In this document: positions 43,060 to 64,000 of the stretch, one piece after another
How the letters are laid out: every line of letters starts with the position of its first letter
Numbering within the stretch: the stretch's first letter is position 1
Origin: Leptolyngbyaceae cyanobacterium
GTDB lineage: Bacteria; Cyanobacteriota; Cyanobacteriia; Phormidesmidales; Phormidesmidaceae
DNA: 64,000 nt
Assembly (NCBI GenBank): GCA_965263355.1
Contig: CBDHHL010000032.1
Span: forward strand, 2,688,001-2,752,000
Direction of reading: 5' to 3'
The notes under the pieces: generated by a model
What the model saw: only the letters and a program-made list of their open reading frames with translations
What the model was told of the DNA's origin: nothing
Databases searched by the model: none
Translations under genes and position numbers: made by a program

Positions 43060-44553
43060 ATGACCTCTGACGGTATCAGCCCCCAACCGCCCATTGATCA
43101 GCCATTGAATACCTCTGTAGAGGTGGCTGTGGAAACTCCACCCTCATCTGCCACACCTCCGGCTCAATCCAGTACCTTTCCAGGCTGGAGAAAAAAGGCC
43201 AACAAACCCCTCTGGCCAGCGGTTGCTTTGGCCATGCTCGTGGTCGCTGGATTTGTTGGTGTAAAAGTCTATAAATCGTTGACAGCGGCTCCACCCTCTG
43301 ACGATATCGAGGAGACAGCCGCTGAAGCCCGTTTACCCGTACGGGTGCTCAGGGCACAGAAAGGGCCGATTCAAGGCTGGGTATTTGATGAAGGGTCGGT
43401 CTGGCCAGTCCGACGACGACTGCTTAACTTTCAGGCCAGTGGCGACATTACCTATGTGGCTAAAGTCGATGGCATAGAACTGCGGGAAGGAGATTTTGTT
43501 TCTCGGGGGCAGCTACTGGCAACCATTGATGCTCGTAGACAGGAATCGAGCATTGCTACGGCTGAAGCCGATATCCAGGTGTCGGAAACTCAACTGGGTC
43601 AATCGAGGGCTAGTATGCTGCAGGCCCAGGCTAGCCTGGAACGGGCAAAGTCAGACCTGGCCCTGGCGCAGACTGAGTTAAGGCGCTATGAAAATTTATT
43701 TGAGCAGGGGGCGGTATCGGAAAGCGATCGCGATTCCTACGTCAATCGAGTAGACCAGGCCGCCGCCGCTCTAAAAACCGCTGAACAGGATGTTCGCTCT
43801 GCGGCTGAGGGCATTCGGTCCTCTGAAGCATCGGTGGATGCCTCATTTGCTCGCCTAAACGAAAGTGCTGTGGACTTAGAAGATACCCAACTGGTGTCTC
43901 CCATTGATGGGGTGGTGGCCTATATCAATATTCGAGAGGGTGAATATTGGAGCACCCAGTATCTCAATACCAGTAGCCCCCAAAATTTGATTGAATCCGC
44001 CCCCATCGTCGTCGTTGATCCCACATCCTTTGAGGTGGAAATCGAGCTGCAAGCAGGAGAAGCGGGCGAGATTCAGCCAGGGCAGCGGGCCTACGTCGTG
44101 TTAGAAGAGGACGTCAGTGCCGCCCAGGCCGCTGGGGCCAACTCCCAGGGCTTGCTGGACATTGCCAGACAGCGGGGCAGTGGTGGTAAAGTATTTGCCG
44201 TCAGTCCGTCCCAAACCCCCGGCAGTCGTGGCACAGAAATCAGTATTCGCGATCTAGACCGAGTCCGCAGTCTAAAAGTAGGGGGTCGAGTATATGTCTG
44301 GATTGAAGTAGCGAGTGACAATGACGCTGTTGTCTTGCCCGTTGGTGCTGTGGTTTCCAGAAATCAACAATATTATGCCTTTGTGGTCAATGAAGTGGAC
44401 GGTACCGTGCAGCAGCGACGGGTGACTGGTGGCATTGAAGGATTATCTGGCGTAGAAATTCTCTCCGGTGTTGAACCAGGGGAGCTGGTGGTGGTTGAAG
44501 GACAAAACCGTCTAGTAGATGGCACCCCCATCGAGATTGTGGACCGGAAGTAA
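43060..44553 (+). CDS. RND efflux periplasmic adaptor (MFP)
   Basis: TM anchor, EGDFVSRGQLLA, coiled coil, SPIDGVV, GELVVVEG. Confidence 0.92.
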   Translation: MTSDGISPQPPIDQPLNTSVEVAVETPPSSATPPAQSSTFPGWRKKANKPLWPAVALAMLVVAGFVGVKVYKSLTAAPPSDDIEETAAEARLPVRVLRAQKGPIQGWVFDEGSVWPVRRRLLNFQASGDITYVAKVDGIELREGDFVSRGQLLATIDARRQESSIATAEADIQVSETQLGQSRASMLQAQASLERAKSDLALAQTELRRYENLFEQGAVSESDRDSYVNRVDQAAAALKTAEQDVRSAAEGIRSSEASVDASFARLNESAVDLEDTQLVSPIDGVVAYINIREGEYWSTQYLNTSSPQNLIESAPIVVVDPTSFEVEIELQAGEAGEIQPGQRAYVVLEEDVSAAQAAGANSQGLLDIARQRGSGGKVFAVSPSQTPGSRGTEISIRDLDRVRSLKVGGRVYVWIEVASDNDAVVLPVGAVVSRNQQYYAFVVNEVDGTVQQRRVTGGIEGLSGVEILSGVEPGELVVVEGQNRLVDGTPIEIVDRK

Positions 44554-44560
44554 CAAAGCT

Positions 44561-47500: not shown

Positions 47501-47827
47501 CCGGCGATGATTGGGGTGATTGCGCTGGTGGGGATTGTGGTAAATGATGCGATCGTAATGGTAGAGACGATGAATGAGCGGCGCAAGGAGGGGTTGGATG
47601 TACGCCATGCGGCGGCGGCAGGGGCAAGTGATCGATTAAGGCCGATTTTGACAACGTCGATTACAACGATTATTGGTCTGTTGCCATTGGCGTTTAGTGA
47701 TGCGCAGTGGTTTCCATTGTGTATGGCGATTATTTTTGGGTTGTTGTCGGCGACGTTGATTGCGTTGCTGGTGGTGCCGGGACTGTATTTGCAGCTGACG
47801 CCCAATACCTCCAAGGTCACTTCCTAG
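44561..47827 (+). CDS. RND efflux permease (AcrB/AcrD/AcrF family)
   Basis: GLLVDVFI, GIVVNDAIV, RLRPILTT; ATG at 44561. Confidence 0.93.
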   Translation: MQIDERAIAAPVTKKGADTSSTPGWMEFFFTRQIFAILLCFMLLMGGLMGYFSMVKEGDPEIKIARAMITTTWGGTDAETIENQVTDKLEEEIKSLQGLDDFTSATFNSFSIINVAFKAEAPVAESIQELRGKVDDAESELPEESTGREKPNFEQLSQQDSPVLTLALTGEGLDIGLLSQASEDIQERLESVKNVREVNLGGQRDEVIHVQMIPSRLTTLGISATQVRNAIQGGNIDRSWDLVRDDEIGAQVRLYGRFRTLDDLKNLPVTRLDENRVVVLSEVADVYQGLERETQRAFISWEGSEFSPTINLEVVKVAGSDTIQVIEDVLAEMELIKNDPSIWLYGMDYRVLTNDAGTIRSDLANLGSNVLQASLLVFAILFVALTWREALIAGLAIPMTFAGVLFILWMLGYTLNTMVTVGMILALGLLVDVFILMLEGLHDGIFVQGLSWSKAAIKTIQTYASPAFTGQLTTILAMAPLMAISGTLGKYIRLIPISAITCLVMSYALALLAVVPLSKFLLGNQGGSGESKTYVDRLTEAASERFSHWSLRITVPNRHVARLWTAGAIALFVCAVILFSQLPSSLFAVADDNKLSLNVELPPAATLETSQEVADLMGEVVRNYSDPNGEKVFESVVKLVGQRSNLVASSEIKPGNADYFVGLSAVFVDRNQRAQDSFDYAYDLKVQMERDIIRNYPGAVLSTGFPLSGGGADPIAIEIFGDDLEQLREISSEVQQALREIPGTMDVRDDLGNLREDYKLVPKRESLNFYGISQDEVGLQGRYMMIDNDVGDYALGSGEEDLEIRLSTRWPSQQGKIGGPSRLDEFATMRFINSDGEAISPNALLEEVPGAVPLAITHRDTQRSVTVLAKVIPGQDFYDSQILAELTPKLDAMQYDPTDEGNPDRWPRGYSYRFGGDADTSSETFGSAGQMLVVAIFLVFAVLVLQFGSYTQPVIIILTIPFALIGTLFGFFALSLSFSFPAMIGVIALVGIVVNDAIVMVETMNERRKEGLDVRHAAAAGASDRLRPILTTSITTIIGLLPLAFSDAQWFPLCMAIIFGLLSATLIALLVVPGLYLQLTPNTSKVTS

Positions 47828-48962: not shown

Positions 48963-49202
48963 CTAACTAATCTTCACTTTTTTAGTCAAAATCGCCATCA
49001 CCTCATTGGGTCGCCCGGTGGGTAGTGGACGACTCCAGTCGTTGGGCTCAGTGTAGTTGAGCTTATGCAACAGCTTGATGGTGGTCTGCACAAAGGTCAA
49101 ACTGCCCAGCAGCAGATGTCGTCCCATTTCGTAGGAGGATTCTGGTAGCGGGTCAGGCTGACGGGTGAGCGCTGATGCGCCCTGGGTTGGGTCTTGAAAC
49201 AT
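48963..49202 (-). CDS. small cyanobacterial hypothetical protein
   Basis: RHLLLGS..VQTTIKLLHKLNYTEPNDWSRPLPT..EVMAIL, a pattern I recognise from small cyanobacterial ORFs. Confidence 0.65.
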   Translation of the reverse strand: MFQDPTQGASALTRQPDPLPESSYEMGRHLLLGSLTFVQTTIKLLHKLNYTEPNDWSRPLPTGRPNEVMAILTKKVKIS

Positions 49203-49664
49203 GGTTCTGGTTCTCCAGAGATACGACAAGGAAAGCCAGAACCCAACAGCTCAGCCCCCGCGATGTATGGCAAATCGCAGGGGCTGAGGCATAATAAGCC
49301 CATCCCAAGGATTGCTCTGGAATCCGCGGGTCAGCCATCGGTTAGGTGTTGCGAGCACCTGCCGATGGTGCCAAGTTATTAGGTTCTAGTAGAACAGCTG
49401 CACTTGCAGCATTGGGTTACTTTAGACCGGGGGTTAGGCTTTCGTCAAGCTAGCGTAATGGGCTGTATCACGCTGTTATCAAGGCACTGAGGAGATGCTT
49501 CTGGCCGGAAAAATGCTCATTTCACTGGTTTAACCGTCAAAAACGGTAGATATTGACCCCATCGAACAAGGATAGTCTTAGCGACCCCCTAAAACATCAC
49601 ACTCACGATAAGTCTTGGTAGATGGCTCAATAGTTTATTTGAACTATTAAAGCGAGGTTAAAGC

Positions 49665-49807
49665 TTTCTGGATAACTCCGACTCTGGGGGTATTATCCAG
49701 AAAGTTTCTGGGTTAATTGCTTATAAGGTGTTTATCCAGAAAGTTTCTGGATAACTCCGGCTGGAAGGTATTTATCCAGACTTAGTCTGGATAACTCATA
49801 GTTAGGC
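49665..49807 (+). other. attI-like integron recombination site with upstream palindromic repeats
   Basis: GGATAAC-TCATA-GTTAGGC (L box, 5-bp spacer, GTTRRRY R box), preceded by TTATCCAG-N7-CTGGATAA palindromes at ~40-bp period. Confidence 0.6.
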
Positions 49808-50530
49808 GCGCGACTCGAAGTCGTTCGGGGGAGTTGGAGAGACTCCCAAATGACTCTCCCCGCCAGTGTTCAGGCGGATGTCCGCCTCGGAATGTTCGAC
49901 CAGTAATGGGAGGGCAGCATCAGCAGACGAGGTTAAATGTCGCAGTATCTTCTGAGCCAACAAGAGGGTGCAGGCTAGGGCAAGATTGCTAAGGATAACG
50001 CAAGTGAATCCTTGATGAGGCTTCGTTAATGTGAGTTCTCGAAATGGCTGATACGAGAATTTTGGAGCATATGGGGGTTGGTAGCGTCTAAATACCAATC
50101 AAGAACACCCCGCTCTCGGAGTAAAGAGGAATCCTAAAGCAATCATATCTCCACCCCGTGCGGAACGAGGAAACCCCGATAGAGTCCTGAAAATACTTTA
50201 TTTTCCAGGTAAGCGGAGGGCAACCAAAGCTGAACTCTCTAGCGGGCACAGGATATCCCAAGAAGCGAAAGCTGCCAGCCGAAAAACCGGAATTCATCAG
50301 ATAGGGCATTTGCCAACCTGAAACTCGTGGGATAGGTGATGGACGATGAAACTTAACTGATTGGGAAAAGTTAGGTGCAAGCTTCGGCTTGTAAACGTAA
50401 CCATCAGGACAATCTGAAAAGGTTGTTAAGAATCGGAAAAACTGAATTTCAAGACATTGCTTGATATACAGTGAAAGTTGTACGTACGGTTCTGAACGGG
50501 ATATATTTAAAACCTGCTTCCTTACCCGAC
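49808..50530 (+). mobile_element. ORF-less group II intron, copy 1 (small deletions incl. domain V)
   Basis: 5' GCGCG, 3' CCTTACCCGAC; near-identical to copy 2 but lacks GCCG in DV and part of DVI. Confidence 0.85.
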
Positions 50531-51298
50531 GCGCGACTCGAAGTCGTTCGGGGGAGTTGGAGAGACTCCCAAATGACTCTCCCCGCCAGTGTTCAGGCGG
50601 ATGTCCGCCTCGGAATGTTCGACCAGTAATGGGAGGGCAGCATCAGCAGACGAGGTTAAATGTCGCAGTATCTTCTGAGCCAACAAGAGGGTGCAGGCTA
50701 GGGCAAGATTGCTAAGGATAACGCAAGTGAATCCTTGATGAGGCTTCGTTAATGTGAGTTCTCGAAATGGCTGATACGAGAATTTTGGAGCATATGGGGG
50801 TTGGTAGCGTCTAAATGCCAATCAAGAACATCCCGCTCTCGGAGTAAAGAGGAATCCTAAAGCAATCATATCTCCACCCCGTGCGGAACGAGGAAACCCC
50901 GATAGAGTCCTGAAAATACTTTATTTTCCAGGTAAGCGGAGGGCAACCAAAGCTGAACTCTCTAGCGGGCACAGGATATCCCAAGAAGCGAAAGCTGCCA
51001 GCCGAAAGGCAACCGGAATTCATAACGGGGCAGATAGGGCATTTGCCCAACCTGAAAGGGGGCTGACGTGGGATAGGTGATGGACTTGAATGAAGGTGAG
51101 ATGAAACTTAACTGATTGGGAAAAGTTAGGTGCAAGCTTCGGCTTGTAAACGTAACCATCAGGACAATCTGAAAAGGTTGTTAAGAATCGGAAAAACTGA
51201 ATTTCAAGACATTGCTTGAGCCGTATACAGTGAAAGTTGTACGTACGGTTCTGAGGGGAGGAAGCGGGATATATTTAAAACCTGCTTCCTTACCCGAC
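50531..51298 (+). mobile_element. ORF-less group II intron, copy 2 (intact ribozyme core)
   Basis: 5' GCGCG; DV GAGCCGTATACAGTGAAAGTTGTACGTACGGTTC; DVI GGGGAGGAAGCGGG...CCTGCTTCCTTACCCGAC; no RT ORF. Confidence 0.92.
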
Positions 51299-51323
51299 AA
51301 TTGCGCAATATTCTTGTGGTAGA

Positions 51324-52190
51324 GTGAGAACCAATCATCCAACCCGACATCAGGTGAAAAGAATTGTACGAAAAGCAGCCCAGAAGATCCTAGGCTTTGA
51401 GCCAGCATTGCCGGCGTTAGAAGCCAAAGTAGCAACCAGCATCTCCGATAATCAACGATACCCCCAAGCCTGTCTTCGAGCTGCAAATGACTATCGACTC
51501 TTTAATTCATTTAGGCAGAGTCATGATTACACACAGATTCTTGAGCATGTCTCCCATGATCAAGGGGCTGCATATCTGGATGAGATAAAGAGATGGCCTG
51601 ACGTGTTTAGCGCACTTCCTGATATAGCCCATAACGATGATTACGGCGGGCCTGTTCTTCATTCTTATCCTGGAATCGCTCCGATATCTCCCAGCACACT
51701 TAGATATGCCAAAGTCTTGTGTGACTTATATAGCTTGTTTGGCTCTCTGGATAACTTTCATATTGCTGAGATTGGCGTTGGCTACGGAGGGCAATGCCGT
51801 GCCATAAATTCAACATCATCGCCAAGTAGTTACACACTTATTGACTTGCAGCCAGTTCTTCAGCTTTCACAGAGATACTTGGACTACTACATCTTGAATT
51901 CACAGCTAGTTTATTCAACCATGAACCAGCTGGCAACCCATGAATATGACTTACTGATTAGCAATTATGCCTTCACCGAGCTTCCAAGGGCAGTTCAGGA
52001 TGTTTATCTCTCTAGGGTCGTTCTGCCTTCGATTCGTGGGTATATTACATATAACCAGATATCTCCAGACTCGTTTATGTCCTATACATCAGATGAGCTG
52101 CTTGAGATGATTCCAGGCTCGGCCAGAGTCGACGAGGTTCCTCTCACTCATCCCATGAACTGTATAATTGTCTGGGGCCAGAATGGCTAA
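51324..52190 (+). CDS. putative sugar O-methyltransferase, cassette-like gene
   Basis: YTQILEHV, SPSTLRYAKV, IAEIGVGYGG, SNYAFTEL. The stop TAA lies inside the attC R'' box GGCTAAC. Confidence 0.82.
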   Translation: MRTNHPTRHQVKRIVRKAAQKILGFEPALPALEAKVATSISDNQRYPQACLRAANDYRLFNSFRQSHDYTQILEHVSHDQGAAYLDEIKRWPDVFSALPDIAHNDDYGGPVLHSYPGIAPISPSTLRYAKVLCDLYSLFGSLDNFHIAEIGVGYGGQCRAINSTSSPSSYTLIDLQPVLQLSQRYLDYYILNSQLVYSTMNQLATHEYDLLISNYAFTELPRAVQDVYLSRVVLPSIRGYITYNQISPDSFMSYTSDELLEMIPGSARVDEVPLTHPMNCIIVWGQNG

Positions 52191-52468
52191 CATAGGCCCT
52201 GAGGCGGACGAGGTCAATAGCAAATGCTAAAATTCTTTTTCTGCTTTAGCTTTAGCGCGGATTCAGACGTTCAAAATTGACCTAATAGTCAGGTGTTCAG
52301 GGAGACTGAACCTGCGCTATTAGATGGGGCTGCGTTGCTGAATGATCATTGATACGGGTTAGCTGTTCATAAGATATTTCTCCAAGTGACTGCATAGAGT
52401 GCTCGATCTTGTTTTGGTTGTTACTGTTTTTATTGCTTGTTTTCAAGTGCAATTTGTTCTTCTTGCAC

Positions 52469-53752
52469 TTATTGTTTAGGTTGTTGTTGAACGCCTAATA
52501 GCTTTACTAGTGGTGATTTTTTACGTCTCAGTGCAGCCAGATATTTCTCCTCGTCATAGGGTACACCATCTTGCCAACAACGCCAGAGAATTCTCCCCCA
52601 CTTATAGGCCAAGGCTCGAATCGCTTTTTGATGTGACTTACCCTTTAGTCGTTGTTGTTGATAAAACGCTTGTGACCAAACCGAGCGAGGCCTGGCATGA
52701 GCAACCCACTCGACAAAGGTTTGTCTTAGAAAGATGGGGCAAGACCAACGCCAATGAACCCATCGCTTTTTGCCACTCTCTTCTTTGACTGGCGCGATGC
52801 CAATGTAACTCAAAAAAGACTGAGCGCAATTAAAGCGAGTTCGGTCTTCACCAAAGGCCGCTAACAATCGTGGCGCTAAATGAGGCCCAGCCCCTGGCAA
52901 TGCCTTAAAAAGTTCTGCATCCGGCAGCGATTCAAATAACGAGGCAATTTGACGCTCAAACACAATCAATTGCGACAAGACTACTTTCAATAAAGCGACT
53001 AAGCCTTGCATTAACGCTTGGGCTGGAATGGTGATAGCGTCGTCTCGCGTCAAGGGTGGCCCAGCGTCTTGAATTTGCTGAGTTCGCCGTTGAATCGTGG
53101 TTTTGCGAATGATGTGATGGCTACGAAAGAAGTCTCTCAAGACATCAGCTGTAGCAGCTTGAGCCTCTTGTAAATTGGGAAACTGTTCAAGGAATTCACA
53201 AAACGCAATGGTGTCTTTATCTTCAAACCAGTCGAGCACTTGAGGAAAATAGGATTTGAGTGCGGCGGTGATCCGATTCGTCAGCCGGACCTTCTCACCC
53301 ACTAACATGCGACGGGACTCAACCCATTGTCTCAATGCACGATGCTTCGGACAACCTGATGTCCAGATATCAAGTTTTTCACCATGTTTTTGCATCAATT
53401 CGACGATCAGTTTGGCATCGATGGGATCCGATTTGGCCCGCGAGGGCTGAAACGCTTTGCGATAGTTCGCGACCGTTCGAGGATTAACGGGCACCAGCAC
53501 CAAATTCTCGTATTGACATAGGCCATAAAGGAGGGGGCCGCGTTTCTGCTCCAACCCAACCAGCAACTTGGACTCTCCATAGGTTTTTCGTAAGCGATTG
53601 ACCCAATCTGCAATGGATTGGGGCTTGGATTGAATCGTGCAATGCTCCCAGGTTTCGTTCTGGCAGTCATAGAGCGCAATATCATGTTTACGATCTGCCC
53701 AGTCAATCCCGATATAAGCCGCATATGCTGTTGGACTTTGATTGAGTTTCAT
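52469..53752 (-). CDS. IS110 family recombinase/transposase
   Basis: GIDWADRKHD, GLEQ, KSDPIDA (DEDD), LPGAGPHLA, GIAPVKEESGK. Confidence 0.95.
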   Translation of the reverse strand: MKLNQSPTAYAAYIGIDWADRKHDIALYDCQNETWEHCTIQSKPQSIADWVNRLRKTYGESKLLVGLEQKRGPLLYGLCQYENLVLVPVNPRTVANYRKAFQPSRAKSDPIDAKLIVELMQKHGEKLDIWTSGCPKHRALRQWVESRRMLVGEKVRLTNRITAALKSYFPQVLDWFEDKDTIAFCEFLEQFPNLQEAQAATADVLRDFFRSHHIIRKTTIQRRTQQIQDAGPPLTRDDAITIPAQALMQGLVALLKVVLSQLIVFERQIASLFESLPDAELFKALPGAGPHLAPRLLAAFGEDRTRFNCAQSFLSYIGIAPVKEESGKKRWVHWRWSCPIFLRQTFVEWVAHARPRSVWSQAFYQQQRLKGKSHQKAIRALAYKWGRILWRCWQDGVPYDEEKYLAALRRKKSPLVKLLGVQQQPKQ

Positions 53753-53804
53753 TGTGCTAAATTGAGGGTGTTTTTGTTTGACGGAGAGTCTGCCACCAGT
53801 CGCC

Positions 53805-54080
53805 TTGCGAAGTGATTATGGAAAGGGTTATTTCCCTGCTCCCTGAGGATTCGTTGGGCAGCGATTGGACTGGCTTGAAGGGCGATTCGATATGTTAGTA
53901 GTCATCTTCTGACTGGCGCTGCATAGTCGTCCCCCCAAGCTAGCAGATTCTCTCCTTTCTTGACTCTATGCTTTTTTCCAGATTTAGAACATCTAAAGGG
54001 AGGAGCGATACGATATGTTAGTAGACATCTATACTGTCGTCCAATGCATAGTCGTCTCCTCCCATTTTTCTATGCTCGTC
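53805..54080 (-). ncRNA. predicted IS110 bridge RNA with two target loops and one donor loop
   Basis: Hairpins 53998-54063 and 53873-53940 each carry CTAACAT (target). Hairpin 53808-53853 carries CCTCAGGG and CCATAAT (donor junction). Confidence 0.78.
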
Positions 54081-54260
54081 CCCCCATAATCCAGATGCAG
54101 AAGACGGGAGTATGGGCTGGCTTCACTGCCGAGATTCTGGCCCGCTTCTGATCTGGAGCGTTAGGCTGCATCCCATACAGAATCCAGTTCCCTACTGACT
54201 CCTCACTTCTGACTTCTCGCATCGAGAAACCGTCTCGCTTTATATTAATACCCTTGAAGC

Positions 54261-57200
54261 TTATTCCTCAGGGCAAGCTTCACGAATTGCCGCACGTACA
54301 GCATTCGCAAGTAGCTGAACTTGAGGAGATTTCATTATCCTATAGTGATTACCTGGAATATGAACAATACCAAACTCTCCTGTAAGCACTGTGTCCCAGC
54401 CCCGATCATCGGTTTCCTCCTCTGCAGAGCAGAGTATCACTCGACCACCATAGGGTTGCACCTGATATCGTGCTAATGCCGTCTGATTAGCTTTGAAGAT
54501 GCGGAATAGATAGGCCATTTGCGTAGGCGTCATTTCCGGTGGTAGTAAGTTCATCCCCTGGGCAACGGCAAAGAGGTGTTCCAGCTGAGCATTAGGTGCG
54601 AGTTTTGCCAGTTTCAATCGATCTAACGACAGCTCACTATCAAACAAACCATTTAAATCAGTGATTAAAGACTGTAAATCTGCCGTGCCAATTTCCTCTG
54701 ATGTCGCCGATTTTGATGCCTCTATAGGGCTGGCTATTACCTGTGGCGTATAGCTATCAATCAGTACAACAAGCGCTACAGCTTCTCCGATAGATTGAAG
54801 CTGTTGAGCCATTTCTATGGCAATAACACCGCCCATTGACCATCCTGCTAAGTAATAAGGGCCATGGGGTTGAACGCTTTTTAAGGCCTTAATATAAGTC
54901 ATGGCCATCGTTTTAATTGAGTCTAAAGGCGTAACGTTATGATATGGTTCTGGTGATTGAAGACCGTACAGCGGTTGGTCTCGACCCAAATGATGGGCTA
55001 ATTCGGCGTAGCAGAAAACATTTCCACCCACTGGATGAATACAAAAGAGTAAGGGCAAAGTTCCATGGGGCTGGATCGGAACGAGGGGAGAGTGGTCTAC
55101 AATCGCATTTTGGCTGTTCAGTAGTCGAGCTTGGGCTTCAATGGTGGGATCAGTAAAGAGCACTGGCAATGGTAAATTAACTCCCAACTCTTGTTCTACT
55201 TGAGCCATTAGTCGCACCGCTAACAGGGAATGTCCCCCTAGCTCAAAGAAATCATCGTGTACTCCGACACTATCAAGGTTGAGGACTGCCGACCAAATTT
55301 GGGATAGTTGAAATTCTAAAGTGGTACGGGGTGGGGTAAAACTTACAGGAAAAGAGAGATCGACTTTAGGCCGGGGAAGAGTGCGACGATCAACTTTACC
55401 ATTGGGCGTCAAAGGTATTGCCTCCAAACGGATAAATGCACTGGGCACCATATAAAGGGGTAACTTAGTTTTAACGAATTCGCGCAACTGACCAATTGTC
55501 GATTCTCTCTTAGTGACAACATAGGCAATCAGGCGTTTATCTTCTGGGATATCTTCTCGAACAGTAACAACTGTTGAACTGACGTCTGGGTGTGTAGCTA
55601 AAACTGTTTCTATTTCTCCAAGCTCTATACGAAAACCCCGGATTTTAACTTGATTGTCAATTCGGCCCAGAAACTCAATGTTCCCATCTTGAAGATAACG
55701 TGCTTTATCTCCAGTATCATAAAGAATAGCATCTGGGTGAACACTAAAGGGATTTTGAACAAACTTCTGGGCAGTTTTTATCGGATCGTCATACCCCACA
55801 GCCAAACATTCTCCTCCAATATATAAAAAGCCAGGCACCCCTATCGGGCAGGGGGTCAGGCAAGAATCTAAGATATAATACTGTGCATTTTGGATGGGTC
55901 TGCCATAGGGAATGCTGGTTAAATTCTGATTGATAGATTCGATCCGATAATAATTCGACCAAATAGTTGCTTCGGTTGCTCCACCCAGACTGACAAGAAG
56001 AATGCTGGGAAATACTTTCTTCACCTGCTCAGGCAAGGCTACTGGAATCCAGTCACCACTCAAGAAGCCTAACCGGAGGGAACTGTTTGCTATGGATTTA
56101 GATGGCAAGAACGAAATCAATTGTTGAAGGGTTGCTGGGGTAGAATCCCAAAAGGTAATTGACTCCTCACAGAGAATATCAGCCACCTTCCGAGGATCTT
56201 GTAATTCTAAATCTGAAGCTACTCGAATTGACCCACCAGCCGCTAGCAAGCCAAAGATATCGTAAACAGATAAGTCAAAACACAAAGAGGTAACAAACAG
56301 TAGGCGATCGTCAACACTCACATTAAAAGTCTGGTTGACCCAATCAATTAAGTTGACAGCAGATCTATGACGTACGATGACGCCTTTGGGTACACCAGTA
56401 GACCCCGACGTATAGATAACATAAGCCGTATTATTCGGCATTACTGATGTTTCGGGATTTCGAGTGGACATTTGTGATAAATGCCAGTTTGTTGCCCAGT
56501 GTTTCTGTAGTACAGTCAAAGCAACTTGCTGTCTATCATTGCTTTCAGTGTTATGTTTTTTAATGATCACATCGTATCGATAGCGAAGTTCATTTTCAAA
56601 TCCCTGCTCTCGCTTAAGAACCGAAATCTCAGCAATAGGCTCTAATTGAACAGCTAAATCCCAGAAAAATTTCTCATCTACATATAGCTCACTACCCAGA
56701 TTAGTTTTCGCCTGGATAGGGTGTTCACCATCCTGATTAGACCTAAAGGCTATCAATGATTGTTCAAACTCGTCTTTGCGGCGAGCGTCCATGATATCTG
56801 ATAGCAAGATCGCTCCTCCTGGAGCTAAGCGTCTTACAGCAAGATCAAGAACGTGCTGTAAATAAAAAGCTCCTGGGAAAAACTGAACCGTACTCGCGAA
56901 GATAATAAGGTCAAAGGGGCCATCTTCAATGGAACCAATCTCATCCGCAAAAGCCGTCACGAGCTTAATAAAATTCCAATTATTCTCCCGAAGAATCTCA
57001 GCGTTACGTGCTTGAGTGATTTCTGAAGGATCAACACCAACATAGAGATCAACCTCAGGAGCAATTGCGAACATAATTTCTCCTGAACCACAGCCAATCT
57101 CTAGCACTCGTTTCCCGCTTCCAAAATATGGTTTCGCTAATCCAACAACGTGACATTTATACTCATCAACTTCGGACTCGGAAAAAGGCTGACTGGTATA

Positions 57201-60200
57201 GCTGCTAATAAATCCACCTGCCGTGACGCGATCGCTAGCCTGCTGGGCTACCCAATCCCATAACGATCGCACAGCCTTACGATCAATTTTTTCAGGATGG
57301 GGGGTGGGATCATCTATATCCAGGCAGATGACATGGGTTAGTTGTGAGTATTTCCATAGCAACTCTTGTGCAGTTCGCAGGTATTTTTGTTGGGTGATAA
57401 GACAGCTTACTGCTTGGGATGTAATAATCTTTTCTACTCGCGCAATTGGCCATTGAGGATCAAAAGGAATGTAAGCTCCACCGGCTTTTATTGCACCCAT
57501 CACGGCAGTTGGAATATTCGCAGAACGGTTCAAATAGATACCAATCTTCACTTCTGGGCCAACTCCGAGTGTTTGTAAGTAGTGTGCGAGTTGATTGGCG
57601 CGAACGTTTAGCTCCTGATAAGTCAGTTGTCTCTGATTAAACAGAATTGCCACTGCATCTGGACGCTGTTTCACTTGGGCTTCAAATAACTGATGAATGC
57701 ATTTATCCTTAGGGTAAGGGGCTTCAGTTTGATTCCATTCAACCAACAATTGGTGCCGTTCTATAGCCGTGAGCAAGGGTAGTTCTGTCACTGATTGTTG
57801 AGGGTTAGCGACAATCGCCCTCAATAGGGTCTCAAAATGCCCCACCGCTCGCTGAATCGTTGCTGTATCAAACAGGTCTTGATTATATTCCCAATAACCA
57901 ATTAGCCTATTATCCCGTTCCTCCAAGGAGAGAAACAGGTCAAACTTGGCGCGACCACTTTCCATTTGCAGCCACTCAAATCTAATTCCTGGCAGATTTA
58001 AGGGTTCCATGGGTGCATTTTGCAGGGCGAACATGACCTGAAAAAGAGGCGTATGACTGAGACTGCGTTCCGGTTGTAGTGCTTCTATTAACTGTTCAAA
58101 GGGCAAGTCTTGGTGGGCATGGGCATCTAACGCGGTTTGCCGGACTTGGGCCAAGAGTTGAGGAAAGGTCAGATTGTCGTCGAAGCGCGATCGTAACACC
58201 AACGTATTCACAAAGAAGCCAATTAATCCTTCAATTTCACTACGATTGCGGTTGGCAATGGGGGTGCCCACCAAAATATCGGTTTGACCGCTGTAGCGGT
58301 AGAGTAGGCTACTAAAAGCCGCAAACAACGTCATAAAAAGGGTTACCCCTGATTGTTGACTCAGATGTTTAAGCTGTTCCGTAAGGGTATGATCCAGTTG
58401 AAAAAAGATGCGATCGCCTTGATTAGACTGCACCGTCGGTCGAGGATAATCCGTAGGCAAGTCCAATAATGGGGGCGCATCGGCTAACTGTTGCCGCCAA
58501 TACTCCAATTGTGGCGCAAGAGATTGAGCGGTGGCAGGTTGTCGCTGCCAAGCGGCAAAGTCGGCATATTGAATGGCCAGTTCAGGTAAGGGTGAGGAGT
58601 CCCCTTCGATGAATGCTCCGTAGAGCACCTCCAATTCATGGACCAATACTCCCGTAGACCAACCATCGGTAATAATATGATGCATAGTGAGAAGCAACAT
58701 ATAGTCATCCTTCGCCAATTGCATCAACATGACCCGTAACAAGGTATCGTGAGCCAGATCAAAGGGTTGTTGTACCGCATCTTGACCCAGCTGTTGGACC
58801 TCAGCCATTTGTTGTTTTGGCTCAACATGCTGTAAATCTACTATCGGCAGTGGTAAATCTCTATGTGGCGATATTACCCGGAGCGGTTTCCCCTCAACAG
58901 ATTTGAAATTTGTTCGTAAGCTATCGTGTCGTCGGACAATTTCTAGTAGAGCTTGATGGAGTGCCTCCACATGCAGCGTCCCTGACAAACGTAAGCCCTC
59001 CTGCTCATTGTAGGCGACACTCTGGTCTTGTAATTGATCTAAAAACCAGAGACGTTGCTCAGCGAAGGATAGGGGTAAGTCTCCTTGACGGGACATCTGT
59101 TGAATCAGTGTTCGCTCTGAGGGCGTAGGTTTGGATTCGGTGTCCAGAATATCTTGGCTCAGTTGGGCGATGGTAGGAGATTCAAATAACCGATGCAGCG
59201 ACAGTTCCCGTTGGAAAACATCCCGCACTCGTGAAATTAGCTGGGTGGCTTGAATTGAATCTCCGCCCAGCATAAAAAAATTATCCAAAACCCCAATTTC
59301 GTTCAGCCCCAACACGTCGGCCCAAATATTAGCTAATAGCTCCTCCATAGGGGTCCGGGGATTCACCAGCTTGACATCTAGAACAGGACGGGAGCGATCG
59401 GGGGCTGGCAAATGCTGACGATCGACCTTACCGCTGGGGGTAAGGGGCAATTGATCGAGGACCACAAATGCCGAGGGAACCATGTAATTGGGCAGGGTTT
59501 CCGTCAGAAACTGACGCACCTGAGGAATCAGCTGATTTGTTTTCTGGCCACTGTATGGTTGGTTCGCATAGGCGTGCCAAGGTTTGGCCTTATTAGGAAT
59601 CTCACCGGGGGGCTGATCAACGGCTCCATGAGCCCTATCACCCAGGATAACGTTTGTGCCCTGCCGTACAAAGATGACATCGTAGTAGCCCTCATTGCCT
59701 TTACTATCCCAAGTGAGATGAACTTGGTACGGAATTTGATCTTGCAACGTCCACCAGACTTCCGGTTCAATGGCCTTGCTCTTGGCATCGTGTAAGGTAA
59801 TCTCTTGGCGAAGTTCCTTTACCGTTGGGGGACAATGATCCACATTTGACAATAGCGACAGGGCGATAACGTCAGACCCAATTCGGGCATTCGGCACATG
59901 GTTGACCACTAATAGGTCAGGGGTCATGTCCACTAGTTTTTGGCGGATGGCATGGATTGCCTCCTCGCCATCTTCTTCACACCAGTCCAGAAAAACAGGT
60001 GCGGTAGGTGTGGCAAATTCTTTATCGATGTGCAACACCACATCGTAACGAAATCGGGTCAGCTCATTTTGATGATATCCCCGCTTTAGGTGAATGTCTA
60101 CATGGCTAATGCGGGGCAGATAGGCCTTTAATGCTGTGAAAAACTCAGGATCAACCATCAATCGTTGTTCACGGGTGCGACGATCGCGAATACGTCTGCG

Positions 60201-62243
60201 TAGGTCTGCTACCGGGAGAGAATCTGGCGATTGATAGAGCTGCACTGAGGTATGGAACATTTCCAACAACGGTAAACTCAAAATATCTCCCAGGAAAATT
60301 TGTCCGCCTGGTTGAATTCTATCCACTGCGGTTTCAATAACTGACACCAAATAATCAATACTGGGGAAGAATTGAATCACTGAATTAGAGATAGCTGTAT
60401 CAAAGGATGTCGTCACAATCTCTCCCAGGGTATGGGCAGCAGCCTGTTGCAGAACTACAGATGCTGCAACTGAAGGTTCAAGGATTTGACCGGCCTTAAG
60501 TTGTCGCTCTAGATAGCGAATGGCCTCACCGGATAAATCTGTAGCATAGTAGTGTTGACACTTAGGTGCCATGCGAAAAAGCAGTAGCCCTGTGCCACAG
60601 CCAATTTCTAAAAGGCGCTGGGGTTGCAATGATAAGATTCGCTCTACCGTATAGTCCACCCATTCCTGTACATGATTTGGGTCCAGATCTGTGCCTGTGT
60701 AGGAGTCGTTCCAGCCGCCAATGTGAAAATCAGCATCCTGCTCCTGATCAGGTTGAATATAGGCTTCATCCCAAATTTGCCGCCATTGTTCCGTTTGTTC
60801 AACGACATCCTGAGTTGCCTTGACCTTAACCTCAGAGCCGGAAACAACATAGGCTACTAAGCGCTTTTGACCGCTGGGTTCTGCTCGCGCTGTTACAACA
60901 GCTTGGGCAATATCAGGATGTTGTAACAGGGTTGCTTCGATTTCTTCCAACTCAATGCGATAGCCCCGTATCTTAACTTGGTGATCAATACGGCCTAAAC
61001 ATTCAATGGTGCCATCGGTATGGTACCGGGCTAAATCTCCAGTTTTATAAAGGCGATCACCCTCCTCTAAATCAGCGTCCTGGGCAAAGGGACTGGGAAT
61101 AAATTTTTTAGCGGTCAACTCCGGACGATTGAGATATCCTCGAGCGACCCCTATGCCCCCAATGTGCAATTCTCCAACTTCACCAACAGCGACAGGGGTT
61201 TGATTCTCATCTAGAATGTAAGCCTGGGTATTACTAATCGTCCGCCCAATAGGGATGGTCGCATCCGCCGATTGCACCCGATGTATCGTGGCCCATACCG
61301 TAATTTCAGTAGGACCATATAAATTCCACAACGATCCCCCCTTAGGTAATAACTGGGCCGCTAGCTCTGGTGATAAGCGGTCCCCAGTAGAAATGATTTT
61401 CAAGTCACGACACCCTGACCATTTAGCATTCATGAGCATTTGCCAGGTCGCAGGGGTAGCTGACATCACTGTCACACGGTGTTGATGAATCAACTGAATT
61501 AACTGATCAGGATCTTGGGTTGCTGTTTGACTGGCCACGACCACCTTACCGCCAACGGTCAATGGACCAAGCAATTCTGGAACTGAAACGTCGAAAGAAA
61601 TGGTTGTAACTGCAATAGACGTATCCGTGTCCCTTAACCCTGGGCAAATGGCAATCGCCAATAGTAGATTCACCACGGAACGATGAGCGATCTGTACCCC
61701 CTTAGGTTTTCCGGTCGAACCAGAGGTGTAGATAATGTAGGCTAAGTTACTAGGTACAGCAGTAGAAATGGGATTAATGGGAGAATGTTGGCCGATGTGT
61801 TGTTTAGTGCTACCAAGGCAGATTAGTGTAATGTTCTTGGCAAGGTGTATCTGGACATTAGTGGCTGGCGATTGAGTTACAATAATTTTTAGACCCGCAT
61901 CTTGCACCATAAAAGCAAGGCGATCACTAGGATAGGCTGGATCTAAAGGAACATAAGTGCCACCAGCTTTCATGATGCCGAGCATCGCAACGACCATTTC
62001 TAAGGAGCGTTCAATGCAAAGTCCCACCAGTACCTCTGGACCTACCCCCAAGGATTGCAGATAATGGGCAAGTTGATTGGCCTGTTGATTTAATTCCTGA
62101 TAGGTAAGTTGCTGCTCCTCAAAAACCAGTGCCACAGCATCCGGAGCCTGCATCACTTGGGCTTCAAACATTTCATGAATGCATCGATTCCAAGATGTGC
62201 TGGTATCAGTATTGCGCATTTCTGAGGCGTTAGCTTCTTGCAT
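54261..62243 (-). CDS. two-module NRPS: A(MT)-T-C-A(MT)-T-TE
   Basis: YTSGSTGKPKG and YTSGSTGVPKG (A3); LEIGCGTG and LEIGCGSG (MT); GGDS and GGHS (T); HHIITDGWS (C); GWSMGG (TE). Confidence 0.95.
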   Translation of the reverse strand: MQEANASEMRNTDTSTSWNRCIHEMFEAQVMQAPDAVALVFEEQQLTYQELNQQANQLAHYLQSLGVGPEVLVGLCIERSLEMVVAMLGIMKAGGTYVPLDPAYPSDRLAFMVQDAGLKIIVTQSPATNVQIHLAKNITLICLGSTKQHIGQHSPINPISTAVPSNLAYIIYTSGSTGKPKGVQIAHRSVVNLLLAIAICPGLRDTDTSIAVTTISFDVSVPELLGPLTVGGKVVVASQTATQDPDQLIQLIHQHRVTVMSATPATWQMLMNAKWSGCRDLKIISTGDRLSPELAAQLLPKGGSLWNLYGPTEITVWATIHRVQSADATIPIGRTISNTQAYILDENQTPVAVGEVGELHIGGIGVARGYLNRPELTAKKFIPSPFAQDADLEEGDRLYKTGDLARYHTDGTIECLGRIDHQVKIRGYRIELEEIEATLLQHPDIAQAVVTARAEPSGQKRLVAYVVSGSEVKVKATQDVVEQTEQWRQIWDEAYIQPDQEQDADFHIGGWNDSYTGTDLDPNHVQEWVDYTVERILSLQPQRLLEIGCGTGLLLFRMAPKCQHYYATDLSGEAIRYLERQLKAGQILEPSVAASVVLQQAAAHTLGEIVTTSFDTAISNSVIQFFPSIDYLVSVIETAVDRIQPGGQIFLGDILSLPLLEMFHTSVQLYQSPDSLPVADLRRRIRDRRTREQRLMVDPEFFTALKAYLPRISHVDIHLKRGYHQNELTRFRYDVVLHIDKEFATPTAPVFLDWCEEDGEEAIHAIRQKLVDMTPDLLVVNHVPNARIGSDVIALSLLSNVDHCPPTVKELRQEITLHDAKSKAIEPEVWWTLQDQIPYQVHLTWDSKGNEGYYDVIFVRQGTNVILGDRAHGAVDQPPGEIPNKAKPWHAYANQPYSGQKTNQLIPQVRQFLTETLPNYMVPSAFVVLDQLPLTPSGKVDRQHLPAPDRSRPVLDVKLVNPRTPMEELLANIWADVLGLNEIGVLDNFFMLGGDSIQATQLISRVRDVFQRELSLHRLFESPTIAQLSQDILDTESKPTPSERTLIQQMSRQGDLPLSFAEQRLWFLDQLQDQSVAYNEQEGLRLSGTLHVEALHQALLEIVRRHDSLRTNFKSVEGKPLRVISPHRDLPLPIVDLQHVEPKQQMAEVQQLGQDAVQQPFDLAHDTLLRVMLMQLAKDDYMLLLTMHHIITDGWSTGVLVHELEVLYGAFIEGDSSPLPELAIQYADFAAWQRQPATAQSLAPQLEYWRQQLADAPPLLDLPTDYPRPTVQSNQGDRIFFQLDHTLTEQLKHLSQQSGVTLFMTLFAAFSSLLYRYSGQTDILVGTPIANRNRSEIEGLIGFFVNTLVLRSRFDDNLTFPQLLAQVRQTALDAHAHQDLPFEQLIEALQPERSLSHTPLFQVMFALQNAPMEPLNLPGIRFEWLQMESGRAKFDLFLSLEERDNRLIGYWEYNQDLFDTATIQRAVGHFETLLRAIVANPQQSVTELPLLTAIERHQLLVEWNQTEAPYPKDKCIHQLFEAQVKQRPDAVAILFNQRQLTYQELNVRANQLAHYLQTLGVGPEVKIGIYLNRSANIPTAVMGAIKAGGAYIPFDPQWPIARVEKIITSQAVSCLITQQKYLRTAQELLWKYSQLTHVICLDIDDPTPHPEKIDRKAVRSLWDWVAQQASDRVTAGGFISSYTSQPFSESEVDEYKCHVVGLAKPYFGSGKRVLEIGCGSGEIMFAIAPEVDLYVGVDPSEITQARNAEILRENNWNFIKLVTAFADEIGSIEDGPFDLIIFASTVQFFPGAFYLQHVLDLAVRRLAPGGAILLSDIMDARRKDEFEQSLIAFRSNQDGEHPIQAKTNLGSELYVDEKFFWDLAVQLEPIAEISVLKREQGFENELRYRYDVIIKKHNTESNDRQQVALTVLQKHWATNWHLSQMSTRNPETSVMPNNTAYVIYTSGSTGVPKGVIVRHRSAVNLIDWVNQTFNVSVDDRLLFVTSLCFDLSVYDIFGLLAAGGSIRVASDLELQDPRKVADILCEESITFWDSTPATLQQLISFLPSKSIANSSLRLGFLSGDWIPVALPEQVKKVFPSILLVSLGGATEATIWSNYYRIESINQNLTSIPYGRPIQNAQYYILDSCLTPCPIGVPGFLYIGGECLAVGYDDPIKTAQKFVQNPFSVHPDAILYDTGDKARYLQDGNIEFLGRIDNQVKIRGFRIELGEIETVLATHPDVSSTVVTVREDIPEDKRLIAYVVTKRESTIGQLREFVKTKLPLYMVPSAFIRLEAIPLTPNGKVDRRTLPRPKVDLSFPVSFTPPRTTLEFQLSQIWSAVLNLDSVGVHDDFFELGGHSLLAVRLMAQVEQELGVNLPLPVLFTDPTIEAQARLLNSQNAIVDHSPLVPIQPHGTLPLLFCIHPVGGNVFCYAELAHHLGRDQPLYGLQSPEPYHNVTPLDSIKTMAMTYIKALKSVQPHGPYYLAGWSMGGVIAIEMAQQLQSIGEAVALVVLIDSYTPQVIASPIEASKSATSEEIGTADLQSLITDLNGLFDSELSLDRLKLAKLAPNAQLEHLFAVAQGMNLLPPEMTPTQMAYLFRIFKANQTALARYQVQPYGGRVILCSAEEETDDRGWDTVLTGEFGIVHIPGNHYRIMKSPQVQLLANAVRAAIREACPEE

Positions 62244-62378
62244 ATCCTGTACATCTAGTTACTGCAGTATCCTATACTAGGGGATTAGGAGTATGAAGAG
62301 TGTTTTTCATCACTGCATAAAAAAAGGATACAAGACGTCGCCAAAGCACCGTCAAAGACAGGCGGAGATGCCTAACAT

Positions 62379-64000
62379 AGTCCCTGAGGCGGACGAGGTC
62401 AATAGCAAAGGCTAAACTTCTTTTTCTAGTTAAGCTTGAGTCTGTATTCAGACATGCAGGATTAACCTGATACTCAGTTGTTCAGGGAGGAGATTGTTCT
62501 CTCTCAGAGAGGGCTGCTTTGCTGTATGACCGTGAATACGGGTTAGCTGTTCATCGGATATTGCTCCAAGTGATTACATCGAGTGCTCGATCTTGTTGTT
62601 GTAGTTGTAGTAGTTGTTGTTATCTGCCTTTAAAGTATTACTTGTTATTTTTGTGATTGTTGTTTAGGTTGTTGTTGAACGCCCAATAACTTTGCTAGTG
62701 GGGACTTTTTGCGTCTCAGTACAGCTATGTATTTTTCTTCATCATAAGGGACACCATCTTGCCAACAGCGCCAGAGAATTCTTCCCCACTTATAGGCCAA
62801 GGCACGAATCGCTTTAGGATGACTTTTACCTGATTGCTTCTGCTGTAGATAAAAGGCTTGGGACCAAGTCGAATGTCGACGCGCTTGATCGACCCATTCA
62901 ACAAAGGTTTGTCTGAGGAAAATTGGACATGACCAACGCCAATGAACCCAGCACTTTTTGCCGCTTTCCTCCTTGACAGGGGCAATACCGATATAGCTCA
63001 TAAAGGCCTGAGCCGACGTAAAGCGCGTGCGGTCTTCGCCAAAGGCGACTAACAGTCGTGGCGCTAGATGCGGTCCGGCTCCCGGTAAGGCCTGAAATAA
63101 CTCGGCATCTGGCAATGACTCAAACAGGTTAGCAATCTGTTGGTTAAATTCAGTTAATTGTTGTAAAACAACCTTAAGCAGAGTGATTAGACTTAAAGTC
63201 AGTGTTTTAGCCGGTATCACAATGGCGTCATCCTCAGTCAGCGGTGGGCCTGCGTCTTTGATTTGCTGAATCCTACGCTGAATCGTCGTCCGTCGAACAA
63301 CATGATGGCGATGGAAAAACTGAGTGATTGTTTCAGGGGTCGCTGCTTGGGCCGCTTTGACATCGTCGAACTGCTCAATAAACTCACAAAAGACCTGCGT
63401 ATCTTTATCTCTAAACCAATCAAGAACTTGAGGAAAATAGGATTTGAGTGATGCGGTGATACGGTTAGTCAAACGCACCTTTTCGCCCACTAACATCCGA
63501 CGCGATTCTACCCATTGTCTGAGGGCACGATGTTCAGGGCACCCTGCCACCCAAGCCTTTAGTTTATTGCCATGCTTACGCATTAACTCCACCAGAATAC
63601 GGGCATCTACGGGGTCGGATTTGGCTCGTGATGGCTGAAACGCTTTTCGATAGTTGGCCACCGTTCTGGGATTAATGGGAAACAGCACTAAATTGTCATA
63701 CTGACACAGCGCATAGAGTAGAGGCCCTCGCTGTTGTTCAAGAGCAACCGCAATTTTGCCAGGACCATACCGTTCTCGGAGTTGTGTGACCCAATCCAGA
63801 ATAGCTTGAGGATGGTTTTGAATAATACTATTTTTCCAGGTGTCTGTTGCACAGTCATATACCGCAATGTCATTTTTTCGGTCAGCCCAGTCAATGCCCA
63901 CATAGGCCACATAGTCAATCGACTCGATGGCCTTAGGCATAGGTGTTTCTGAAGCTGAGTCTGTAGTTATGGTTGGGGCTATTGTCATTGTGTTAGATTA
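62379..64000 (-). mobile_element. second IS110-family element (left end outside window) inserted after GCCTAAC-AT
   Basis: End AGTCCCTGAGGCGGACGAGGTCAATAGC is homologous to 52194 onward. Confidence 0.85.
62645..63988 (-). CDS. IS110 family recombinase/transposase (diverged paralogue of 52469-53752)
   Basis: GIDWADRKND, ALEQ, KSDPVDA, GIAPVKEESGK. Confidence 0.95.
   Translation of the reverse strand: MTIAPTITTDSASETPMPKAIESIDYVAYVGIDWADRKNDIAVYDCATDTWKNSIIQNHPQAILDWVTQLRERYGPGKIAVALEQQRGPLLYALCQYDNLVLFPINPRTVANYRKAFQPSRAKSDPVDARILVELMRKHGNKLKAWVAGCPEHRALRQWVESRRMLVGEKVRLTNRITASLKSYFPQVLDWFRDKDTQVFCEFIEQFDDVKAAQAATPETITQFFHRHHVVRRTTIQRRIQQIKDAGPPLTEDDAIVIPAKTLTLSLITLLKVVLQQLTEFNQQIANLFESLPDAELFQALPGAGPHLAPRLLVAFGEDRTRFTSAQAFMSYIGIAPVKEESGKKCWVHWRWSCPIFLRQTFVEWVDQARRHSTWSQAFYLQQKQSGKSHPKAIRALAYKWGRILWRCWQDGVPYDEEKYIAVLRRKKSPLAKLLGVQQQPKQQSQK

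Follow-up and report, generated by a model that had tools for sequence, protein, structure and literature searches.

Organization of the locus

The locus described here lies in a segment of 64,000 nt (termed the window) from a 3.9-Mb contig (CBDHHL010000032.1) of a Leptolyngbyaceae cyanobacterium, and resembles an integron array that lacks an adjacent integrase gene (intI) and whose recombination sites are occupied by mobile elements. The DNA is cyanobacterial; the transposase of the first insertion sequence (IS1) is 94–96% identical to copies in Leptolyngbya-type genomes. Starting from acrB, the top strand passes through two Uma2 genes, an 88-aa open reading frame (ORF), an attI site, two group II intron copies and a methyltransferase ORF that ends in an R'' box. 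It then continues through IS1 and the remainder of the site attC1 into a non-ribosomal peptide synthetase (NRPS) gene on the minus strand, a second R'' box and a second insertion sequence (IS2). The features are listed in Table 1. An earlier, sequence-only reading of the window had listed an attI-like site, introns, a methyltransferase, an attC split by an IS110, an 8.2-kb segment and a second R'' box with its IS110, and all are present where it had placed them.

The analysis is based upon related genomes and upon public contigs carrying the DNA of the window, taken from runs X1, X2 and X3. X1 and X2 represent one sample and X3 a second; all belong to one study, and one of them may underlie the assembly. 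No RNA run is among those listed as carrying this DNA. A further run (X4) with a small share gave scattered short pieces and was not used.

Table 1. Positions of the features of the array within the window
Feature	Position	Strand	Basis or remark
attI platform, alternating TTATCCAG/CTGGATAA boxes, period ~40 nt, ending GGATAAC-N5-G/TTAGGC	49626–49807	+	homology to intI-upstream DNA
attI simple site GGATAAC-TCATA-GTTAGGC	49789–49807	+	
Group II intron copy A, ORF-less, doubtful standing	49808–50530	+	
Group II intron copy B, ORF-less, IIB-type	50531–51298	+	Rfam DV/DVI, EBS1, AGC triad
Cassette 1 ORF, putative sugar O-methyltransferase (TIGR04371), stop in R''	51324–52190	+	
attC1 left part: R'' GGCTAAC and AT core	52185–52193	+	
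IS110-group element no. 1 (IS1), 1897 bp with one AT core	52194–54090	-	transposase 53752–52469, 427 aa
Bridge-RNA donor loop, CTCAGGG (= right end) and CCATAAT (= left end)	53816–53853	-	
Bridge-RNA target loop 2, guides TGCAGCGC and CTAACAT	53890–53929	-	
Bridge-RNA target loop 1, guides TGCATTGG and CTAACAT	54013–54054	-	
attC1 right part: L'' GATGCAGA, variable loop, L' TCTGATC, 6-nt spacer, R' GTTAGGC	54091–54166	+	
NRPS, 2660 aa, A(MT)-T-C-A(MT)-T-TE	54261–62243	-	within putative cassette 2 (54161–62376)
Putative attC2 left part: R'' GCCTAAC (62370–62376) and AT core	62370–62378	+	7/7 complementary to attC1 R'
Hybrid promoter-like site TTGACC-17-TATGTT across the IS2/attC2 junction	62374–62402	-	consensus match only
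IS110-group element no. 2 (IS2), left end outside the window	62379–64000	-	transposase 63988–62645, 76% identical to no. 1

The attI platform and the integrase

The platform ends in a simple site with the G/TT crossover of an integron platform. Positions 49626–49804 are 87% identical over 179 nt to the DNA directly upstream of intI in a related genome (G003:C6), where the intI scores above the TIGR02249 cut-off. Fifteen attI sites from the window and four genomes were aligned; twelve are similar up to TAG/TT, beyond which they diverge, and of the other three sites two are truncated and one degenerate. Just one of the fifteen is adjoined by intI, and matches to an attC model (described below) are found downstream of eight of the 14 sites in the relatives. 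With a homologue that abuts intI and many intI-less copies that carry cassettes, the attI-like site of the earlier reading is, judged by its sequence, a genuine attI.

The attI of the window is not adjoined by intI, as it would be in a complete integron. None of the 35 window ORFs scanned against Pfam belongs to the tyrosine recombinase family, and tblastn with cyanobacterial IntI gave no match in the window at E ≤ 1e-3, in agreement with the earlier reading. An intI above the cut-off is present in four of five near genomes, and in 65 of the 172 genomes of the order; many of the remaining 107 are incomplete. The loci L100 and L101 are orthologous intI-less attI loci that share flanks at 80–83% and yet hold different cassettes, which points to an integrase acting in trans. 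Such an integrase, encoded elsewhere in the genome, would probably serve the array of the window. All the evidence for intI comes from the genomes of relatives and none from this organism, and this weighs against the proposal.

The locus might instead be the dead relic of a primary integron, in which intI has been replaced by the Uma2 genes and the small ORF and just the parasites still move. We regard this as rather unlikely. It would account for the lack of intI or a remnant of it in the window, agrees with the many genomes of the order without intI, and draws upon the position of intI in PCC 7375, right after the orthologous acrB (83.5% nucleotide identity). However, the integron of PCC 7375 has a different type of attI. 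In this organism the attI is intact, and attI-like DNA is present at about 3–4 times single-copy depth (~55 compared with 15.5) with several different flanks. The different cassettes held by the orthologous orphan loci also argue against a relic.

The 3' flank of the acrB orthologue (44519–47827) is an integron spot in relatives, with intI in PCC 7375 (L099) and a partial attI in G004 (L105). A second type of attI, with TTTCCACCTAATCA repeats, lies upstream of intI in L098, L099 and L112; its IntI is 70% identical to the L097 type. A small element (48963–49400) comprising the hypothetical 88-aa ORF and hairpins has dozens of copies in near genomes. An element of this type lies directly 5' of the orphan attI here and in L100, L101 and L108. 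It has Uma2 genes next to it in the window and also, judged from N-terminal likeness, in L100 and L101. The matches of the ORF are to unnamed cyanobacterial clusters only, all below 0.8. The element could be an agent that spreads attI.

Cassette 1 and the attC1 site

The ORF of cassette 1 matches the TIGR04371 sugar O-methyltransferase family (69.7 bits against a cut-off of 44) and has no Pfam match. Its TAA stop codon lies within the R'' box GGCTAAC (52185–52191), as had been read. On removal of IS1 in silico, with the AT core shared, a canonical attC of 85 nt results: GGCTAAC-ATCCA-GATGCAGA...TCTGATC-TGGAGC-GTTAGGC. R'' is followed by a 5-nt spacer and an L'' of 8 nt with an extrahelical base, and beyond the loop a 7-nt L' is separated from R' by 6 nt, in the arrangement of an attC bottom-strand hairpin. 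On either strand the rebuilt site folds with z of about -4.0, a better value than those of three alternative junctions, and it scores 19 in our attC finder, which gave 0 matches in 1.43 Mb of reversed control DNA.

Exactly this empty site exists in public contigs of the same organism. A joint from 52191 to 54089, skipping 1897 nt, is present at single-copy depth in a 9233-bp contig of X1 (depth 15.5) and an 8944-bp contig of X2 (depth 3.4). In the X2 contig attI is moreover joined straight to cassette 1, without introns. It reads GTTAGCC, the exact complement of the R'' box of cassette 1, and the same joint occurs in X3, on a short side. Occupancy of the sites is thus polymorphic. The claim that all three recombination sites are occupied therefore holds for this assembly and not as the general state.

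It had also been proposed that attC finders would miss the array because the sites are split. A covariance model was built from 23 intact attC sites, in which 87.6% of cells are paired, the sites having been picked by a finder that requires that pairing. This model, which is our own and not that of IntegronFinder, still detects attC1 in its split form (26.6 bits, E 5e-4), the IS end CCATAA acting as a mimic of R''. It likewise has a match abutting the left end of the IS in 31 of the 40 related loci with that end in view (23 at E ≤ 0.02), so for this model the proposal does not hold. With a sequence-only hidden Markov model the rebuilt attC1 scores 14.5 bits and the split site 7.5 bits, so that splitting does cost signal for non-structural methods. 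Rfam at gathering scores has no family matching the bridge RNA (see below) or attC. With one model match in the array and sites 8.2 kb apart, the array is not a cluster of attC sites lacking integrases (CALIN) as defined in IntegronFinder (two or more attC at intervals below 4 kb and no intI), and this 4-kb clustering rule is the likelier reason that the array would be hidden. A weak isolated attC-like site is located at 24366–24438 (15.1 bits, E 0.26).

The IS110-group elements

The transposase of IS1 has DEDD and Transposase_20 domains and scores 176.6 against the NF033542 cut-off of 140, as a member of the IS110 family. The element is inserted 2 nt inside attC at the T/AT core. IS1 is present at about 3.5 times and IS2, of about 1.93 kb, at about 6.7 times the single-copy depth. 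From 59 related IS loci both ends were obtained in 27, making 28 with the window; GTT follows the element in all 28 and GTTA in 25. A Pseudoalteromonas relative (47% identity) occupies the same attC position, with guides that, read by eye, fit its own site. Nine of the 40 left ends have no attC match, which weighs against strict attC specificity; one of these (L053) is an insertion into another IS end.

In L053 (position 9690) the copy has gone into a related IS at its right end, which suggests that insertion was guided by the donor loop or took place end to end. A Pseudoalteromonas array (L061:3499–9245) has three different IS110-family elements; that of 422 aa, a relative with a single loop, occupies the same position in attC. 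The right ends of the ISs (52200–52470 and 62385–62645, ~270 nt) are conserved between IS1 and IS2 and highly variable across the family.

The sequence-only reading had brought in the attC-targeting IS1111 elements as the known precedent. The elements here are of another kind, with a guide RNA in the left end, upstream of a transposase of ~427 aa. We therefore assign them, at the level of sequence, to the IS110 group with left-end RNA. Between the ends there is, as judged by eye, only a short gapped GGACGAG...ATAG similarity.

Folding of the IS1 left end gives a z of -3.6. The RNA, if expressed, would contain two loops of the form CGAC-n3-guide-hairpin-CTAACAT and a third, donor loop, in which CTCAGGG and CCATAAT match the ends of IS1 itself. 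This predicted structure, upstream of the transposase and with target and donor guides, has the composition of a left-end bridge RNA. Thirty of 35 left ends with a donor loop have the long form, 27 of them with two parsed target motifs, and five have a single loop. The guides correspond to common L'' variants of local attC sites, and a second IS1 target in X3 (a loose end at 54089, read by eye) matches loop 1 at 8/8. The left end of IS2, mapped on IS1 (54030–54044) and read by eye, implies a different target guide, about TGCAACGAG.

The fit of guides to targets was examined in 25 two-loop copies with 20 guide sets, two copies having been dropped as unparsed. The better loop matches its target at 6.64 of 8 positions, compared with 5.98 of 8 when the guides are permuted (p about 1e-4, uncorrected for the kinship of the copies). 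Loop 1 is the better fit in 14 copies and loop 2 in eight, with three ties.

It is conceivable that only loop 1 is functional, with loop 2 a vestige or structural spacer, but we think it the less probable situation. The added value of loop 2 over loop 1 is not significant (6.64 compared with 6.47, p = 0.15, in mutually related copies), loop 2 taken by itself does no better than permuted guides (p = 0.49, with offset 9 not covered), and the five single-loop left ends have none. Two further points weigh against the guide assignment proposed here. The target in the window itself fits loop 1 at 6/8 and loop 2 at 5/8, and the spacing from guide to core is variable (offsets 9–12) and longer than in the contiguous layout of IS621. 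On the other hand, the stems and CTAACAT guide of loop 2 are kept across 21 aligned elements, the guides of the two loops are identical in none of the 25 copies, and loop 2 is the better match in the eight copies noted above. For one element in one genome, loop 2 fits three sites (L019, L052 and L056), loop 1 fits one (L041) and neither fits one (L053). Use of both loops would allow a wider set of attC variants to be targeted.

The circle junction of the IS would read TTGACC-17-TATTAT and the inserted junction reads TTGACC-17-TATGTT, with similar -35 and -10 letters across the 28 copies. The hybrid promoter-like site at the IS2/attC2 junction faces the start of the NRPS gene at a distance of 130 nt, and is at chance level (1 found, 1.2 expected in shuffles).

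The group II introns

Copy B has the features of a group II intron: an Rfam match to domains V and VI (DV/DVI) at 51216–51298 (66.4 bits), an intact DV with an AGC triad, a GYGCG-like 5' end and an AY 3' end. Its exon-binding site 1 (EBS1), GUCUAA at 50809–50814, is located in a stem-loop and pairs with the integron core. An earlier EBS1 candidate, in a loop near 50915, gave no pairing and was dropped. The 5' part of copy A is near-identical to copy B, and eight short deletions are packed into ~210 nt of its 3' third, including 4 nt of DV. With DV broken in this way copy A could not, by prediction, splice by itself. Its deleted 3' part is in none of the contigs listed from the runs, and the depth is low in the bin 50051–50567, although in a filtered listing a gap of this kind is no proof. 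Given the packed deletions, the 3.9-Mb length of the source contig and the lack of a tandem arrangement among 22 insertion sites, the tandem intron is unproven and possibly an assembly error.

Some match to the intron family is found in 38 of the 172 genomes. Nine genomes contain between them 12 ORF-less copies that are full-length and in one piece, at 80–86% identity. The junction set comprised 30 returned loci together with L098, L106 and the window, with 22 readable 5' junctions and EBS1 readable in 14. The insertion site begins with GTT in 20 of the 22. EBS1 pairs with its target at 6/6 in ten copies and at 5/6 in the other four, and a C is present at the matching position of the target in 3/3 GGCUAA variants, compared with 2/10 having GUCUAA. 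The intron lies 6 nt 3' of the crossover, and the attI simple site stays intact. In five loci (L123, L125, L126, L130 and L138) intI starts divergently just upstream of the intron. A point that weighs against insertion at this very attI is that the intron-less allele reads GTTAGCC and the window GTTAGGC; the 5' flank of the intron may derive from another locus.

Remnants of the same intron, consisting of its 43 nt at the 5' end with the rest lost, occur in L098 (8960–9002) and L106 (12687–12729), directly behind the R' box of an attC and behind an attI-like end. One intron family uses both types of attI.

The earlier reading had named the group IIC introns of integrons. IIC-attC introns insert in the bottom strand at TTGT/T, opposite to the cassettes, with a 3–4 bp EBS1 and an intron-encoded protein (IEP) without an endonuclease. 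The introns of the window family lie in the top strand and have an EBS1 of 6 nt, and an ORF-bearing member (L184) encodes reverse transcriptase, maturase and HNH domains. By the published statement that class C IEPs have no endonuclease domain, the HNH domain excludes class C. The 6-nt EBS1 and the HNH domain of the relative lead us to classify these ORF-less introns as IIB-type. The assignment rests also on the AGC triad in DV, which we take to be a mark of IIB. In X1 and X2 the sequence at a loose end (51208) gives, on reading by eye, C-H-Q-Q-V-H-R-stop, resembling the end of an HNH domain, so that this sample may also contain an IEP donor.

The NRPS unit and the putative attC2

The 8216-bp segment up to the R'' box is occupied by a single gene, missed by the sequence-only reading, that encodes an intact two-module NRPS, in which the two carrier serines, HHxxxDG, GxSxG and the two A3 motifs are all present. 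The distance is 94 nt from the end of the ORF to the R' box of attC1 and 127 nt from its start to the second R'' box, with no attC-model match between the two boxes. R' and R'' are complementary at 7/7 positions, as are 2.9% of random pairs. The X1 contig with the empty attC1 runs through the NRPS gene into R'' and the IS2 end, so the gene order is not an artefact of assembly. Other short contigs join the end of attI or of an intron to the same R'' and IS2 end (joints to 62370–62373, on short sides), placing IS2 in cassette ends elsewhere in this organism. Of the earlier claim that an IS110 had struck a second R'' box, the box and IS2 stand (62370–62379); the right half of attC2 is outside the window. 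The contigs listed show no right flank of IS2 and no excision circle or alternative position of the unit, and a metagenome scan with the shared IS end gave one unrelated 2.5-kb contig.

In the protein collection the NRPS forms a cluster by itself; among 7999 candidates scored, the best are 68–70% identical to it over residues 1600–2250. There is no stretch above 72% identity in the five near genomes, and with these low identities the gene looks recently acquired. We consider it on balance likely that the NRPS unit is a true cassette. It would probably be about four times as large as the biggest cassettes known in 2016, for which ~2 kb was quoted. There is a precedent in a relative, where a 4.1-kb cassette with four reverse-oriented genes (L097:1464–5314) lies directly behind an intI-adjacent attI.

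Several observations weigh against cassette status. Only R'' and the core of attC2 are in view, the right half lying past 64000, and the IS guide CTAACAT dictates five of the seven letters of R''. GTTAGGC is the box at six of the 28 IS targets, making the 7/7 match modest evidence, and only four of 16 adjacent attC pairs in the relatives are 7/7. The closest NRPS relative examined (57%, in PCC 7375) lies in an ordinary cluster of tailoring genes without attC. If the array ended at attC1, the NRPS would have come by another route, and the second R''-like box would be a mere fit to the IS guide or a lone unrelated attC; the IS loci without a detectable attC and the great length of the unit would agree with this. 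Such an arrangement seems improbable to us, since the NRPS fills the interval almost exactly, the boxes agree at 7/7, the gene looks newly acquired and IS2 is found in other cassette ends of this organism.

The NRPS might also be cargo of a composite element bounded by IS1 and IS2, two related ISs that flank it in the same orientation. Their transposases are just 76% identical, however, and X1 and X2 contigs carry cassette 1, the empty attC1 and the NRPS without IS1. This contradicts a composite transposon, which was rejected as highly improbable.

A model for the array

Taken together, the locus is probably a satellite integron array, with an attI, two cassettes including the NRPS unit and no adjacent intI, parasitized by RNA-guided IS110-group elements and a IIB-type intron. 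The attI homologue that abuts intI, the rebuilt attC1 and the empty alleles bear out the earlier proposal of an integron-type array without an integrase. The matches of the guides, the pairing of EBS1 and the same empty alleles do so for two classes of RNA-guided elements in integron sites. Cassette 2, as judged from its flanks, would be an 8.2-kb unit with a complete reverse-oriented NRPS of two modules.

Both parasites would read the conserved recombination letters of the integron by RNA base pairing. In the IS one guide would read the R'' box (CTAACAT); the L'' box, together with its extrahelical base (TGCA/TCCA...), would be read by the other, and the variable spacer skipped. Insertion would split the attC and immobilize the cassette until the IS is excised. 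The intron, using EBS1 GUCUAA, would reverse splice into the top strand after GTTAGRC with an IEP supplied in trans, leaving attI intact. We tentatively extend this to a scheme, plausible though on the whole doubtful, in which one integrase serves many orphan attI docks and moves a whole NRPS as an 8.2-kb cassette. The two-loop IS110 would then be a reversible lock on attC whose junction makes a promoter facing the NRPS, so that insertion both freezes the cassette and switches it on.

Integron cassettes are usually seen as small single genes near an integrase. The distinctive points here are the probable NRPS cassette and the attC-specific IS110 with two target loops. If correct, an NRPS cassette at an orphan attI would provide an integron route for the transfer of natural-product pathways in cyanobacteria, in arrays of a kind that escape the 4-kb clustering rule. 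The IS110 group would have reached attC targeting separately from the IS1111-attC elements, and the natural bridge RNA, whose two target loops differ, would make it a candidate multiplexed programmable recombinase. The intron family would be a second, non-IIC route to integron sites, after which attI remains usable.

Comparison with known systems

Further references for the IS1111-attC group are reportedly Tetu and Holmes (2008) and Post and Hall (2009). Attested in the literature are attC-targeting IS1111 elements (PMC11187229), IIC-attC introns (PMC4424553, PMC7923331), a single IIB1 intron behind an attC (PMC7923331), and also cyanobacterial integrons. A literature search covering few subscription papers gave no left-end IS110 targeting attC, no two target loops, no ORF-less attI-homing intron family and no NRPS cassette, and a term search of 10.64898/2026.08.14.744561 was likewise negative; such elements could be listed in the supplementary material of PMC11208160 (Extended Data Fig. 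10c, Supplementary Table 5) or of PMC11187229.

The array shares with CALINs the presence of attC and cassettes without a nearby intI. It differs in having an intact attI, many attI copies per genome and attC sites 8.2 kb apart, beyond the 4 kb within which IntegronFinder clusters attC (PMC4889954). Cury et al. (2016, PMC4889954) note that IntI is encoded in the genomes of half of all CALINs, which may remain functionally linked.

The IS1111-attC group comprises ISKpn4, ISPst6 and ISPa25, with the guide RNA downstream of the transposase and subterminal inverted repeats of 7–17 bp (Siddiquee et al. 2024, PMC11187229). Like the members of this group, the elements of the window have a DEDD transposase and are directed by RNA to one fixed place at an end of attC. 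Here, by contrast, the guide RNA is upstream, in the left end, with no evident long subterminal inverted repeat and with two target loops. The transposase is of ~427 aa, and the named relative of its clade in the searches is ISEsa2; ISKpn4 and ISPst6 are not among the named matches of these searches.

With IS621 of the IS110 group (Durrant et al. 2024, PMC11208160) the elements share a left-end RNA, target and donor loops each with a top- and a bottom-strand guide, a 2-nt core, and a promoter-like site at the circle junction. They differ in the duplicated target loop with different left guides, in the 2–4 nt skipped before the core, and in a degenerate hairpin target. For recognition of a hairpin by an IS110 element ISPpu10 provides a precedent (10.64898/2026.03.19.712850).

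The introns share with IIC-attC introns a specialization on integron recombination sites (PMC4424553, PMC7923331). They differ from these in lying in the top strand in the orientation of the cassettes, mostly in attI after GTTAGRC, in the longer EBS1, in being ORF-less, and in the HNH domain of the ORF-bearing relative. The closest comparison is with UHB.I2, a group IIB1 (CL1) intron in a CALIN (PMC7923331), which has the same IIB type and cassette orientation and lies immediately after an attC. UHB.I2 is an isolated case that carries an ORF and whose exons are poorly conserved, whereas the introns described here form an ORF-less family with an EBS1 that is complementary to, and covaries with, the integron core.

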